The notes under the pieces: generated by a model
Seen by the model: the letters and a program-made list of their open reading frames with translations, nothing else
The model's database searches: none
What the model was told of the DNA's origin: nothing
DNA from: Gammaproteobacteria bacterium
GTDB taxonomy: Bacteria > Pseudomonadota > Gammaproteobacteria > JBCCGL01
NCBI GenBank assembly: GCA_965277715.1
Contig: OZ255836.1
Location: 3,168,001 to 3,232,000 of the forward strand
DNA length: 64,000 nt
Direction: 5' to 3'
Shown: positions 21,900-31,493 of the stretch, one piece after another
Numbering within the stretch: the stretch's first letter is position 1
Layout of the letters: the number at the start of each line of letters is the position of its first letter
Made by a program: the position numbers and the translations under genes

Positions 21900-22951
21900 A
21901 TGTCATAAATCGCTACTTCGTTGTCGTCTATATCCCGGTTTAACAGCCGTGTGTTCGAGTTTTCTGCATCACCGAGAACGACCTCACCCTCGCCCACTGT
22001 TCCCAGGGTTTTGGTTTTGCTGTGTTGATTGTCATTGCTGTAGTCCAGGCTGACGGTTTGTCCTAGCCCCACACTCGCCGAGGTTGAGCGCGCTTCTACT
22101 GTGTTGTTCAGGCTGCCCACTTCCAGGGTATTGGTAACTAGCGTCAGTTGTTGGTTGTCATTACCGTCTTCATCCACGGCGGCTATCGTTGCCCCTCGCA
22201 ATGTCGTCGCTTCCGCCACAGTGATGTCGACTGTTTCACCCAGCAATTGGGTGTCTACGGTGTTTTTGATCACCGATCGCGCCCTGGCGTTGCTTAGCCC
22301 CGCTGAGTTGATGCCACTGCTGCTAAACCCGGCACTGAACCCCTGGGATTGACTGCGGTCTTTGGTGCTGTTTTGCACCGAGGCCACATGCAGGGTTTGG
22401 GTGTTCAGGCTCAGGGTGTCGCCCGCCGCTACATCCGCCCCTTTAATCTGCGTGGTATCTCTTGTGGTGATCGTGATGTTATTGGCCAACAGGGAGGCGT
22501 TGGTTTGCGTGATCTCACGGCGGCTGCTACTGGCGCTGTCACTGCTCAGGTTGACACCACCCCCACTGCCCCCGTACAGATCGATCGAGATATTGACGTT
22601 TCTATGCTCGGTGCTGGTTTCCCGCGTTGAAAGATCCTGGGAGGCGAGGATGTTTAAGTCCTGACTGTCGATGGTGATACCTTCACCGGCTTGCAGGTGG
22701 CTACCCTGTATCGTGGCGGTGTTGTTGGCATTGATGGTAATCGTATTACCCGCACTCAACGTCGAGGCCACTGAACGCTGCTGGGCTTCACTCAGTTGTT
22801 CTTCCAGCACATCCAGATCAATTTCAAGGCCCGCGTTAAAGCCGTAGGTGCCGCTGCTCGCCGCTGCCTTGGCCAAATGTGCGGTGGTGCCGACACACAG
22901 GCAAGCCAATAGAACAATCAACAGGTTATGACAAACAAGAGAAAGACGCAT
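21900..22951 (-). pseudogene. Truncated orphan CdiA-CT cassette 4 (leader plus constant hemagglutinin-repeat region; toxin tip and immunity gene lost)
   Basis: Near-identical to cdiA ~34420-35390; homology stops at ...NEVAIYDI where the repeat element begins, and the ORF reads through the repeat to 21815. Confidence 0.85.
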
Positions 22952-23106
22952 AAACAGAGTGTAACGATTGGTGAGTATTTGGCGAGTAGTTTTTCTTTTC
23001 GGTGGGAATTTACAAATATCGTTAGCGCGACCAGTGGGCCAAGTTTATCAACCGATCAATATAATACTTGCCTCTAATTTTTCTTTTGAATGCAATTAAA
23101 TATACC
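22952..23106 (-). repeat. Conserved ~155-bp upstream segment of the orphan cassettes (other copies 27243-27397, 27757-27911, 31248-31402; partial 23221-23305)
   Basis: Near-identical AAACAGAGTGTAACGATTGG...TTAAATATACC in four places, each between an orphan ATG and a TGACCCC motif. Confidence 0.9.
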
Positions 23107-28356: not shown

Positions 28357-31247
28357 GGATAACCCGGTATCACAGTCAAATTAGGTTGTAAGTCAACGAT
28401 ACTACCCAACTGAGGATCAACATAATGGACCGTACCACCCCTGTTCACGCCAACAATCACATGCTCAACGCCACCACTTTGTTGAATACGGACCACAGCC
28501 ACTGCACCATCACCTTGCCCTAAAAGAGTGTTGGTAACACTTGACGGCGTAGTAGCTCTACTAAACCCCCATGGTGCTGATGGAAGCAAATCATTTGGAG
28601 TGCCATAGCCAGCGGATGGTGCAGCAACTGCGTTTGGGTTTCTTCCTGTTAAGCGATCAACAGTAGCATTTACACCTGCACTTGCGCCATCAACATAATG
28701 CGGATTCACACCAGCTAGTTCAGGAAACTCATCGGTCATTGGCCGTGTACTGCCGTAAATTCTATCAACAGCACTGCCACAACGTCCACCCGCACAACTA
28801 TTTGTAGCTACTCCACTTGCAGCATTACCCGCCTCAACCTCAACCTCAACATCCGTACCCGTATCCGCAGTATTACTTACATTTTGATCATTCCCTAGAC
28901 CATCCACTTGAGCAACCTGACCATCACCCTCAAGATTAGTGCTACTATTATCCCTCGGTATATCTAGATCCGGTCCATTTGGAGCATCTGGACCATCACC
29001 CAATCCCCTCAATACACGGTCCAGCTTACCCAATCCCACTATACCTGCAAGGTATGCCCCGTAATTCTCACCCTCTTCAAACGAACCCGATAAACCACCA
29101 TTATCCAGTGTGGCAATCTCTTCCATTGCTTCATTTATTTCTTTACCAGCATTGTCTAAGCTTGTCCTTATCTGTTCCTTTTCTTCTTCCGTAACCGGGC
29201 TGCCCTCATAGATCTCGTGCAAGCGATTTAACGCACCACCCAGTTCGCTTACTACCCGTTCTGCCTCCTCTGGGTCTTCTATTAATTCGTTGATTTGATC
29301 AACTAGCGCAACCACATCTTCTATTGTCTGCTCAACCGCACCTGATGCCATTCCCAACATTTCTGCTGCACCTTGGACTGCGCTGACTGTGTAATAGAAC
29401 TGATTCGTCACCATCTCACAAGACCTTCCATCGCACGCTTCAAGATCCTCTCGCTGTTCCGCTTCCTGGGTGGGTGTCAGACGGTTATCACCCTCATCTT
29501 TATCCAATCCTTCAAACTCTGCATTGTTTTCAGCTACACGCTCACTCGTTTCAGTCCCTACACGGTTATTCTCGCTCGCCAACCCTCCTTCGTAACCATT
29601 TACCTCCAGCGCAAACTCCGTGTATTCCGCCAGGTTTTCACCGTAATTGTCCGCATAGCTTTCATTGTCCTGCGTATTATCAAGGTCTACTTCTTCCGAT
29701 TGCCTGTCTATCGCATGTGAGGTCTCGTGGCCCGCTGTGGTGATTAGTTCTTCGGTATTCTCTATGTGTTGATCATTGATATACGCATGACCCGTTTCAT
29801 CTGAGTAGTAACCTTGCACCGCCTCACCGTCCCGGCCTGCCACATCAGTATTGACTAGCCTGTTTTCGTGGCTTTCGTAGCCCAGCTCGGCCATCACCGA
29901 TGAGGTAATCTGGTTGAGCAGTTGTTCTTTCTCTGCCGGGTTTAGATTCGGGTTTTGCAGTGCATTGGCCAATGCAGGGGTGTTGGCTATTTCAGTCTTT
30001 ACCGCCTCGTAGGTGCGATGGGCTTTATCTGTTTCACTGAAAAAGTCTTCAACTCCTACGCGCTCTGTCGTGGCGATCAGTTCGATGGTATTGACGATCA
30101 TTTCCGATTTAAGAATATCCTCGGCAATCGCCGTTCTTCCTCTTTCTGTCAACAACCGCGTATCCAACGACCCACTCAACCCCTGGTGCGATTCAATGTC
30201 ATAAATCGCTACTTCGTTGTCGTCTATATCCCGGTTTAACAGCCGTGTGTTCGAGTTTTCTGCATCACCGAGAACGATTTCACCCTCGCCCACTGTTCCC
30301 AGGGTTTTGGTTTTGCTGTGTTGATTGTCATTGCTGTAGTCCAGGCTGACGGTCTGCCCAACACCCACACTCGCCGAGGTCGAGCGCGCTTCTACTGTGT
30401 TGTTCAGGCTGCCCACTTCCAGGGTGTTGGTAACTAGCGTCAGTTGTTGGTTGTCATTACCGTCTTCATCCACGGCAGCTATCGTTGCCCCTCGCAATGT
30501 CGTCGCTTCCGCCACGGTGATGTCGACTGTTTCACCCAGCAATTGGGTGTCTACGGTGTTTTTGATCACCGACCGCGCCCTGGCGTTGCTTAGCCCCGCT
30601 GAGTTGATGCCACTGCTGCTAAACCCCGCACTAGCCCCCTGGGATTGACTGCGGTCTTTGGTGCTGTTTTGCACCGAGGCCACATGCAGGGTTTGGGTGT
30701 TCAGGCTCAGGGTGTCGCCCGCCGCTATATCCGCACCTTTGATCTGCGTGGTATCTCTTGTGTTTATCGTAATGTTATTGGCCAGCAGGGAGGCGTTGGT
30801 TTGCGTGATCTCACGGCGGCTGCTACTGGCGCTGTCACTGCTCAGGTTGACACCACCCCCACTGCCCCCGTACAGGTCGATCGAGATATTGACGTTTCTA
30901 TGCTCAGTGCTGGTTTCCCGCGTTGAAAGATCCTGGGAGGCGAGGACGTTTAAGTCCTGACTGTCGATGGTGATACCTTCACCGGCTTGCAGGTGGCTAC
31001 CCTGTATCGTGGCGGTGTTGTTGGCATTGATGGTAATCGTGTTACCTGCACTCAATGTCGAGGCCACTGAACGCTGCTGGGCTTCACTCAGTTGTTCTTC
31101 CAGTACATCCAGGTCAATTTCAAGACCTGCGTTAAAACCGTAAGTGCCGCTGCTCGCCGCTGCCTTGCCCAAATGTGCGGCGGTGCCGACACACAGGCAA
31201 GCCAATAGAACAATCAACAGGTTATGACAAACAAGAGAAAGACGCAT
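28353..31247 (-). CDS. Orphan CdiA-CT cassette 1: leader, constant region, HExxH region and papain-fold (Tox-PL-like deamidase) tip
   Basis: Follows cdiA through DKDEGDN, then unique; tip has EHVIVGVNRGGTVHYVDPQ, like papain-fold toxins. Confidence 0.8.
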   Translation of the reverse strand: MRLSLVCHNLLIVLLACLCVGTAAHLGKAAASSGTYGFNAGLEIDLDVLEEQLSEAQQRSVASTLSAGNTITINANNTATIQGSHLQAGEGITIDSQDLNVLASQDLSTRETSTEHRNVNISIDLYGGSGGGVNLSSDSASSSRREITQTNASLLANNITINTRDTTQIKGADIAAGDTLSLNTQTLHVASVQNSTKDRSQSQGASAGFSSSGINSAGLSNARARSVIKNTVDTQLLGETVDITVAEATTLRGATIAAVDEDGNDNQQLTLVTNTLEVGSLNNTVEARSTSASVGVGQTVSLDYSNDNQHSKTKTLGTVGEGEIVLGDAENSNTRLLNRDIDDNEVAIYDIESHQGLSGSLDTRLLTERGRTAIAEDILKSEMIVNTIELIATTERVGVEDFFSETDKAHRTYEAVKTEIANTPALANALQNPNLNPAEKEQLLNQITSSVMAELGYESHENRLVNTDVAGRDGEAVQGYYSDETGHAYINDQHIENTEELITTAGHETSHAIDRQSEEVDLDNTQDNESYADNYGENLAEYTEFALEVNGYEGGLASENNRVGTETSERVAENNAEFEGLDKDEGDNRLTPTQEAEQREDLEACDGRSCEMVTNQFYYTVSAVQGAAEMLGMASGAVEQTIEDVVALVDQINELIEDPEEAERVVSELGGALNRLHEIYEGSPVTEEEKEQIRTSLDNAGKEINEAMEEIATLDNGGLSGSFEEGENYGAYLAGIVGLGKLDRVLRGLGDGPDAPNGPDLDIPRDNSSTNLEGDGQVAQVDGLGNDQNVSNTADTGTDVEVEVEAGNAASGVATNSCAGGRCGSAVDRIYGSTRPMTDEFPELAGVNPHYVDGASAGVNATVDRLTGRNPNAVAAPSAGYGTPNDLLPSAPWGFSRATTPSSVTNTLLGQGDGAVAVVRIQQSGGVEHVIVGVNRGGTVHYVDPQLGSIVDLQPNLTVIPGYP

Positions 31248-31493
31248 AAACAGAGTGTAACGATTGGTGAGTATTTGGCGAGTAGTTTTTCTTTTCGGTA
31301 GGAATTTACAAATATCGTTAGCGCGACCAGTGGGCCAAGTTTATCAACCGATCAATATAATACTTGCCCCTAATTTTTCTTTTGAATGCAATTAAATATA
31401 CCTGACCCCTTTTGTTAAGGAAGTGCCATTCTGCCTTGACCTCTTTTTTTTAATAGTGAATAACTGGCCTGACCCCTTTTTGGACCCCTTTTT

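Follow-up and report, generated by a model that had tools for sequence, protein, structure and literature searches.

The stretch of DNA analysed here, called the window below, comprises 64,000 nucleotides (nt) from a Gammaproteobacteria bacterium, and all coordinates are positions within it. It carries a locus for contact-dependent inhibition (CDI): ORF (open reading frame) calls and Pfam matches place a cdiB-cdiA-cdiI cluster on the minus strand, with four orphan cdiA-CT units downstream on the same strand. Our subject is the start of these orphans. All four open with the same segment, here called the start module, which consists of an untranslated part, an ATG and a 27-codon leader resembling a signal peptide. 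The parts of the locus are as follows, listed in the direction of transcription of the cdi genes; MITE stands for miniature inverted-repeat transposable element.

53602 to 55272, minus strand: cdiB, a TpsB-type transporter (Pfam ShlB, 1.1e-61, with POTRA_2 and POTRA_3)
32732 to 53617, minus strand: full-length cdiA, 6961 residues (ORF and translation), with the constant region shared with the orphans from the K codon at 35389
32433 to 32735, minus strand: cdiI of the main gene, overlapping the cdiA stop codon (ATGA), with AAGGAG 8 nt upstream
32287 to 32398, minus strand: MITE-like repeat (repeat family D11, 79%), related to the pair at 21676-21903
31500 to 32228, plus strand: N-terminally truncated fragment of an ISL3-family transposase (Pfam DDE_Tnp_ISL3, 1e-63, profile positions 16-239 of 240)
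31248 to 31413, minus strand: untranslated part of start module 1, beginning with AAAAGGGGTCAGG, with a promoter-like TTCAAA-18-TATTAT at 31386-31357
31167 to 31247, minus strand: leader 1, 27 codons, passing a crude signal-peptide test
28353 to 31247, minus strand: orphan 1 ORF, 964 residues, made up of leader, constant region, a pretoxin region of the main-cdiA type and its own C-terminal toxin
28042 to 28356, minus strand: cdiI-o1, 104 residues, overlapping the orphan 1 stop codon (ATGA), without a clear Shine-Dalgarno sequence
27757 to 27922, minus strand: untranslated part of start module 2 (sequence comparison)
27313 to 27756, minus strand: orphan 2 remnant, 147 residues, made up of leader, 63 constant-region codons and a read-through into module 3
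27243 to 27408, minus strand: untranslated part of start module 3 (sequence comparison)
24156 to 27242, minus strand: orphan 3 ORF, 1028 residues, with its leader at 27162-27242
23863 to 24156, minus strand: cdiI-o3, 97 residues, overlapping the orphan 3 stop codon (TAATG), without a clear Shine-Dalgarno sequence
23221 to 23386, minus strand: fifth, partial and leaderless copy of the 5' part of the module, ending in ...CGCGCTAA (repeat family D7)
22952 to 23117, minus strand: untranslated part of start module 4 (sequence comparison)
21815 to 22951, minus strand: orphan 4 remnant, 378 residues, made up of leader (22871-22951) and constant region, with no toxin and no immunity gene
21676 to 21903, minus strand: two tandem 112-nt MITE-like repeats with inverted ends GGGGTCAAGGC ... 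GCCTGACCCC (family D11, 100%)
21377 to 21664, minus strand: C-terminal fragment of an isocitrate/isopropylmalate dehydrogenase (Pfam Iso_dh, 6.3e-18, profile positions 262-346 of 348)

The four orphan ORFs (ATG at 31247, 27756, 27242 and 22951) begin with MRLSLVCHNLLIVLLACLCVGT(A/T)(A/T)HL(G/A) and continue with KAAASSGTYGF. A degenerate pattern for the first nine leader codons has exactly four matches in the window, all on the minus strand (22925-22951, 27216-27242, 27730-27756 and 31221-31247), while 100 shuffles give an expectation of zero. An earlier, sequence-only reading of this DNA had reported the same 27 codons at the head of four cassettes, and the 81-nt leaders are indeed only 0-4 differences apart. 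There are four variable sites: one synonymous change in a leucine codon, and three replacements, at residues 23, 24 and 27, all of them behind the hydrophobic core. The shared upstream segment, given as about 155 bp in that reading, measures 166 nt and shows 0-3 differences between copies; it is composed of the 13-nt motif AAAAGGGGTCAGG and 153 nt.

Homology to full-length cdiA starts at the K codon, located at 31166-31164 in orphan 1 and at 35389 in cdiA, and the reported in-frame fusion at one identical point is found as described. Equally, the leader is absent from the full-length gene: comparing it with the 81 nt that precede the K codon in cdiA gives 15 identities in the first 63 nt and nine in the last 18 (marginal, shuffle p 0.04). 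As the identity next to the junction is marginal, the junction is sharp to within about 15 nt. We also considered that the leader could be a diverged copy of the CdiA helix that it replaces, and rejected this because, with these identities, the global score is no better than that of shuffles. The single junction shared by all four copies suggests one fusion event.

The leader is confined to the cassettes wherever we searched. When all 118 ORF N-termini in the window were compared none resembled it, the next best score being 35 against 130-140. Within the window, where no ORF has a similar start, this rules out that the leader stems from a signal peptide belonging to the full-length cdiA or to a gene nearby. 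A 40-residue query (27 leader residues and the following 13) against 5.8 billion protein clusters returned only orphans of the same genome: 19 candidates shared words with the query and three proteins matched, all from the 4,294,796-nt contig that contains the window. At the DNA level, leader plus module had no exact match in viral contigs and no blastn match in plasmids or phages, and an Rfam scan of 21300-32800 gave no family at E up to 1. A first scan of genome contigs with a single protein gave 233 pattern matches, none of which was confirmed. As an alternative, the sequence-only reading had suggested that the leader was captured from the start of some unrelated gene; neither the protein clusters nor the ORF starts in the window lend this any support, and the same is true of the genome carrying a sister leader family that is described below.

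Further, the fusion exists in related populations. In two runs labelled as sponge metagenomes, from two other studies, contigs run from the constant region through the leader into the module, with an identity of about 96-97% (records 13 and 14 of X4 and record 18 of X5, with 4-10 differences per 140-295 nt). We left out of the junction evidence X5 record 19, which ends at 31167, and an X4 joint from 31481 to 32286, whose 29-letter side is too weak.

The motif at the head of the module is repeated in the array. Allowing up to one mismatch, AAAAGGGGTCAGG occurs 15 times in the window (0.06 expected), always on the minus strand and always within 21766-32388, and it heads several different short sequences: the 112-nt element, the start module and the leaderless module copy. 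The 112-nt element, present as the tandem pair at 21676-21903 and as one copy at 32287-32398, has terminal inverted repeats. The start module has the left-end MITE motif only, without a matching inverted right end, and the repeat search listed no inverted pairs of at least 40 nt.

As a separate observation, GGGGTCAG forms the 5' edge of start modules in two CdiA lineages that are about 50% identical. In the sister lineage it lies about 31 nt before the leader ATG in L002, L005, L011, L012 and L015. In both lineages it also forms the inverted ends of small hairpin elements nearby (L004:7821 and 9362).

This setting gives rise to a first alternative, in which the orphans are silent donors and the leader is a fortuitous ORF. 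A single illegitimate joining event, possibly at the end of a MITE or an insertion sequence (IS), would have put a T-rich sequence before a displaced cassette, a sequence in which an ATG happens to lie in frame and the codons happen to encode hydrophobic residues. The leader would then have been copied along by unequal recombination, and the orphans would serve only as recombination donors and carriers of immunity genes, in line with the classical model. Much in the array fits such a history: the modules start at MITE-like GGGGTCAG ends, in an array where such repeats are numerous and an IS fragment is also present; a single junction underlies all four copies; half of the four ORFs are broken; and the 1.1 kb of cdiA homology available to the orphans in the repeat analysis is enough for a donor role. 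It also agrees with the part of Poole et al. 2011 (PMC3150448) that describes orphans as generally lacking translation initiation signals and the orphan immunity gene of EC93 as expressed by read-through transcription. We nevertheless regard this alternative as possible but somewhat unlikely, mainly for what is seen in other lineages, presented below.

Each module contains a promoter-like TTCAAA-18-TATTAT about 110 nt before the ATG, matching at nine of 12 positions. The immunity genes cdiI-o1 and cdiI-o3 overlap the orphan stop codons (ATGA and TAATG, respectively) and do not have the AAGGAG carried by the main cdiI; given this overlap and the lack of a clear Shine-Dalgarno sequence, the orphan cdiI genes would gain from translation of the orphans.

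A second alternative builds on this arrangement: the module may serve only to drive coupled expression of orphan cdiI genes, providing broad immunity, with the signal peptide clearing the by-product toxin from the cytoplasm. The overlapping genes without a clear Shine-Dalgarno sequence, unlike the main cdiI, are what it predicts, and orphan immunity genes protect natural isolates according to a 2026 preprint (bioRxiv 10.64898/2026.09.30.755834). However, coupling requires just a start and no conserved hydrophobic leader, a co-expressed immunity protein already neutralises toxin in the cytoplasm, and the two broken cassettes keep their leaders without having an immunity gene. We therefore consider a role in immunity alone improbable.

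For the signal-peptide character of the leaders we used a crude test with three requirements: positive charge in the n-region, a core that spans 9 or more uncharged residues and averages 2.0 or higher in hydropathy, and small residues at positions -3 and -1. The window leader passes as a candidate for Sec export and cleavage by signal peptidase I with score 3: it has R2, the core LLIVLLACLCV, and T-A-A before H25. The signal-peptide-like layout proposed earlier is thus consistent with this test of n-, h- and c-regions.

The lipobox-like LLAC that was proposed along with it fared less well. Lipoboxes are described by the PROSITE-like pattern {DERK}(6)-[LIVMFWSTAG](2)-[LIVMFYSTAGCQ]-[AGS]-C, with K or R near the N-terminus. 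The window leader, with VLLAC and C17, fits this pattern, but the lipobox is not common to leaders: among 15 it is found in the window's own and in none of the other 14, and the match may be due to chance. In addition, five otherwise differing leaders end their hydrophobic part with A-H-(L/I), namely AAHLG in the window, QAHIP in P0149, YAHLP in P0101, YAHLP in P0006/P0041 and QAHIL in P0094; this could be a common processing site, or chance.

Relatives were collected with the first 380 residues of orphan 1, giving 166 proteins other than its own, 35 metagenome loci and 15 genome loci. In 33 of the 166 proteins homology to CdiA starts at residue 17-60, which leaves a leader of 16-59 residues, and 16 of these 33 pass the crude test. 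The background is clearly lower, with 63 of 691 short ORFs from the same DNA passing (binomial p 6e-9). In 500 shuffles of the leaders an average of 5.8 and at most 12 passed, against the 16 observed, and extensions that are shorter pass in only one case out of 56. When the leaders are grouped by eye into families, 11 of 21 pass. Signal-like leaders at about five times the background, and above shuffles that keep the composition, weigh against a fortuitous ORF.

Orphan-type ORFs start near the same motif elsewhere as well (P0005, P0022, P0030, P0104, P0065 and a startless Sulfurimonas fragment). Two further leaders, MKYLRLFLFFVILCPATPASA and MSRTYLLLFLLLGFTTA, are found on cassettes neighbouring the sister family, and the latter (MSRTYLL...) has AGGAGG just upstream of its start. 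In the complete genome of Sulfurimonas sp. CS5 (L038, 8892-9944; also L006) an orphan extends from the same KAAASS point with no in-frame start codon; this orphan, from the lineage of a cultured relative, is of the classical silent type and shares the boundary. Another leader family, MGWLQC.K.INKKSW, is joined at AAASSGTYGF in P0131, P0132, P0140, P0143, P0144 and P0155, which have differing toxin ends.

The most informative relatives carry what we call the sister family of leaders, with the core (I/L)MAL(F/L)L(F/L)GAAPFS(Y/F)A, which is unrelated to the window leader and is present in one metagenome (six contigs) and in a metagenome-assembled genome (MAG) of Thiohalomonadaceae. The copies were collected with a DNA regular expression that is blind to the downstream frame, which gave 12. 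Homology to CdiA follows in nine of them, and in each it is read in frame +0, with none in either alternative frame. There are five fusion points, at -136, +18, +70, +130 and +245 relative to the window junction, and the chance of five in-frame fusions is 0.004. The three copies without homology to the CdiA of the window end with the contig, are interrupted, or are fused to a pretoxin region absent from the window; for one of these three (L017) alignment by eye to other relatives gives a sixth fusion point, also in frame.

Codon positions tell a similar story. Seven unique sister leaders of 72 nt vary at 4, 6 and 13 sites in first, second and third codon position, respectively (p 0.019). Of the codons with a single difference, 56 are synonymous and 78 are replacements in frame; out of frame the corresponding figures are 4 and 118 in one case, and 22 and 96 in the other. 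When the 15-codon core is compared across lineages, the variable sites are 8, 4 and 10, which is not significant (p 0.16). The n-regions vary (MNRLVLSFV, MRQLHRLIYI, MGNVAGNRTLFLIP); basic residues are kept in each. In the 3.1-Mb MAG the leader occurs three times, all in one CDI array (DNA with up to 3 mismatches; peptide with E up to 10). Taken together, we read these data as evidence for in-frame selection and coding constraint on the sister leader family. Five in-frame fusion points with none out of frame, combined with a third-position bias, also weigh against a fortuitous ORF.

The constant region that follows the leader is itself informative about the history of the array. Its copies (repeat families D1-D6) are 95-98% identical, and those in main cdiA, orphan 1 and orphan 3 are 23-38 codon differences apart, with synonymous and replacement differences of 32/6, 18/5 and 31/7. 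Since the differences are mostly synonymous, the cassettes are diverged alleles under constraint at the protein level and not fresh duplicates. This constraint could come from an earlier stage as full-length genes, with no bearing on present translation.

Module and leader differ at 3-7 of 247 nt between copies and the constant region at 35-39 of 966 nt. We considered whether the module is less diverged than the constant region, but the difference is significant in just one of three pairs and no conclusion was drawn. The module has diverged roughly like the constant region, and it is therefore not a very recent add-on; that it is no more diverged than an adjoining coding region with mostly synonymous variation is a further point against a fortuitous ORF. 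The simplest history would be one ancestral fusion, after which module and constant region provided the homology for unequal crossing-over and for cassette exchange between strains. This history of recombination holds whether or not the leader functions.

Beyond the constant region the orphans differ. An own variable C-terminal end together with a small immunity ORF is found in two of the four units (orphans 1 and 3). The cassettes had been described as about 1,000 residues long, which is right for these two (964 and 1028 residues, each with an immunity gene) but not for orphans 2 and 4, which are truncated remnants (147 and 378 residues), the latter interrupted after 'AIYDI' by a 112-nt MITE-like repeat. 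As also stated earlier, the products lack the domain used in two-partner secretion (TPS): Pfam finds only Fil_haemagg_2 in orphans 1, 3 and 4 (1.2e-14 in orphan 1). No Pfam family is found above cut-off in the orphan toxin ends; Gln_amidase scores 21.3 bits in orphan 1, below its cut-off of 24.1. The main cdiI does not match any Pfam family.

Two observations concern the region between constant region and toxin. Main cdiA and orphan 1 share about 250 more residues past the constant region, with an HExxH motif (GHETSHAID; 33300-34300 and 29000-30000). Orphan 3 has a different region at that place, with GHELIEN, and Pfam gives no match for either region.

We modelled CdiA residues -150 to +380 around the junction with AlphaFold2 (window 34250-35839, model mf1782bd31b34; 16 sequences, mean predicted local distance difference test, pLDDT, 77.6). 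The model contains, in order, beta strands, a helical hairpin (residues 53-154), a low-confidence linker (148-169) and a domain of long strands (162-485). The junction corresponds to model residue 151, which would put it within the low-confidence linker, with the leader replacing the last helix and directly preceding a predicted beta-rich domain. A fold search with this model gave no match in the PDB at E up to 0.001. It can also be noted that the C-terminal constant domain is predicted to be a run of strands of about 20 residues that follows a helical hairpin of 100 residues.

The location of the junction is relevant to the model that the sequence-only reading had put forward: Sec-exported mini-proteins loaded in trans onto the CdiA filament, or passing through CdiB, so that one stalk would carry several toxins. 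In favour of it, the orphans appear to begin at the linker before the C-terminal beta-rich domain, and a signal peptide would place their products in the periplasm, the same compartment in which roughly this part of CdiA is reportedly held before contact with the target. Against it, the TPS domain, which is what TpsB transporters recognise, is missing from the orphans, where Pfam finds nothing but Fil_haemagg_2. In sister fusions between 130 and more than 245 residues of the beta-domain can be missing, which means that the domain need not be intact, and our literature searches turned up no precedent. We consider loading in trans very improbable.

We propose instead that the start module is portable, making displaced cassettes into translated, Sec-targeted proteins, and that it is spread by recombination; judged from the sequences at hand, we put the chances of this at about even. 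The module would consist of about 150 nt of untranslated sequence, an ATG and a Sec-type signal peptide of 27 residues, fused in frame at the linker that precedes CdiA's C-terminal beta-rich domain. It would let an orphan be translated independently. The product, consisting of beta-domain, pretoxin region and toxin, would be sent across the inner membrane, while its translation would feed the immunity gene that overlaps its stop codon. In this lineage the fusion may have happened a single time, with the unit of about 1.3 kb formed by module and constant region supplying the homology for gain, loss and exchange of cassettes; recombination of that unit would account for one junction in four copies and for the two broken copies.

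We prefer a working leader because the leader is exclusive to the cassettes where searched, because signal-like leaders recur on orphans elsewhere, and because of the frame and codon evidence in the sister family. The feature is real and more general than the sequence-only reading could know, and a function is plausible. Translation from the leader ATG, export, cleavage or lipidation, and all later steps, would be predictions from sequence. For what happens after export we see two possibilities with roughly equal odds: extra toxins may be released by a route other than CdiB, or a by-product of immunity expression may be removed.

A number of observations weigh against a working leader. Some concern the expression of the orphans: no Shine-Dalgarno sequence is found upstream of the leader ATG (cactctgtttATG), while several genes in the window have one, and promoter-like sites are not in excess in the region, with 18 against 13.6 in shuffles (sd 3.7), the 9/12 site being weak. 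The start modules are built on MITE-like GGGGTCAG ends, and the L001 leader abuts a transposase-like gene and may be mere element sequence. Others concern the signal peptide: the test is home-made and passed by 9.1% of background ORFs, 17 of the 33 long leaders fail it, H8 and N9 lie inside the hydrophobic core, and the leader DNA is T-rich, which alone favours hydrophobic codons. The MGWLQC.K.INKKSW family, with six representatives at the same junction, is basic and non-hydrophobic, so conserved in-frame extensions can exist without signal character. Finally, the four copies descend from one event and their agreement is not independent evidence, one synonymous and three replacement sites in four leaders cannot show selection, and what the sister family shows was seen not in this organism but in relatives whose CdiA is only about 50% identical. 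The missing Shine-Dalgarno sequence, the promoter-like sites no commoner than chance, the background pass rate of 9.1% and the conserved non-hydrophobic family would all be in line with a fortuitous ORF.

A bolder version of the working leader would be a second route for CDI toxins that is independent of CdiB. The products of spare cassettes would be synthesised constitutively and exported to the periplasm; vesicles, lysis or self-insertion of the beta-domain into the outer membrane would then bring them to neighbours. One locus would deploy several toxins at a time, and in several proteobacterial lineages the orphan arrays would be in active use and not archives. We regard this as a long shot, less probable even than a role in immunity alone.

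Outside the array the flanks consist of ordinary chromosomal genes: BipA, MutY, AsmA, glycolate oxidase subunits and an ABC-F protein. The relatives of this BipA reach 88% identity at most and come from MAGs labelled simply as Pseudomonadota or Gammaproteobacteria. The interval from the main cdiI to orphan 1 is filled by the MITE-like repeat and the truncated ISL3 transposase gene on the opposite strand. At the other end, the dehydrogenase fragment has only its last ~95 codons and abuts the MITE pair; a resident gene appears to have been truncated by the array or its repeats. Next to it, on the plus strand (17633-21138), lie a gene for an AAA ATPase (332 residues) and one for an S8 subtilase (835 residues), whose start overlaps the ATPase stop; this could be a two-gene system beside the array. 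A Fic/DOC family protein of 409 residues is encoded just upstream of cdiB (55632-56861, minus strand). Within cdiA, antisense ORFs recur every 1272 nt (45015, 46287, 47559 and 48831; window 45015-49454), and its translation contains near-identical blocks of about 424 residues, so that the filament part of the 6961-residue CdiA is a long tandem array.

In the standard view orphan cdiA-CT cassettes are untranslated spares, relevant only after recombination into the head gene or through their immunity genes. De Gregorio et al. 2019 (PMC6336857) describe orphans as displaced remnants. If orphans commonly had their own start and export signal, a CDI toxin route bypassing the filament would be possible, and the expressed repertoire of toxins and immunity proteins of a strain would be larger than the head gene suggests. 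If the leaders are inert, they would illustrate that gene callers can create convincing 'secreted toxins' out of junction sequence. In titles and abstract openings we found no paper describing orphan cdiA-CT cassettes with signal peptides; supplements may list orphan start sites.

How does the feature compare with known systems? With MITE-like repeats the start modules share their beginning, GGGGTCAG, as in the 112-nt repeats with GGGGTCAAGGC/GCCTGACCCC ends, both in the window and in the sister lineage. They differ in having no inverted right end, and nothing matched in plasmid, phage and viral collections.

With the classical orphan cdiA-CT/cdiI modules, as described in the passages of Poole et al. 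2011 (PMC3150448) used here, the units share the position downstream of cdiBAI, the 5' homology to the constant region, the distinct toxin end and the small immunity gene, as well as the organisation in multi-unit arrays mixed with debris of mobile elements. Compared with that description, every unit here has an in-frame ATG and a signal-like leader, unlike the usual, though not obligatory, lack of an initiation signal; a Shine-Dalgarno sequence is lacking here too. Further, the homology kept by the orphans is about 350 codons long, starts at the domain linker and does not end at the VENN motif.

The Neisseria MafB proteins, as presented in excerpts of Jamet et al. 2015 (PMC4287609), are likewise polymorphic toxins with signal-peptide-dependent export and no dedicated outer-membrane partner identified. 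There, however, the signal peptide sits on the full-length toxin, before a conserved MafB-N domain, and those excerpts mention no signal peptides on the mafB-CT cassettes that have start codons. In our locus the head gene uses two-partner secretion, and the simple leader is found on the spare cassettes only.

In layout the orphans also resemble the Sec-dependent class of polymorphic toxins listed in Table 1 of Zhang et al. 2012 (PMC3482391), in which a lone signal peptide, in some cases with a lipobox, stands ahead of pretoxin, variable toxin and a linked immunity gene. The members of that class are by definition full-length toxins with N-terminal domains of their own, whereas here a fragment of a type V secretion system (T5SS) substrate stands behind the signal peptide, and one locus would therefore mix two modes of trafficking. 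The feature is a variant of the orphan CDI cassette that borders on the known Sec-dependent polymorphic toxins.

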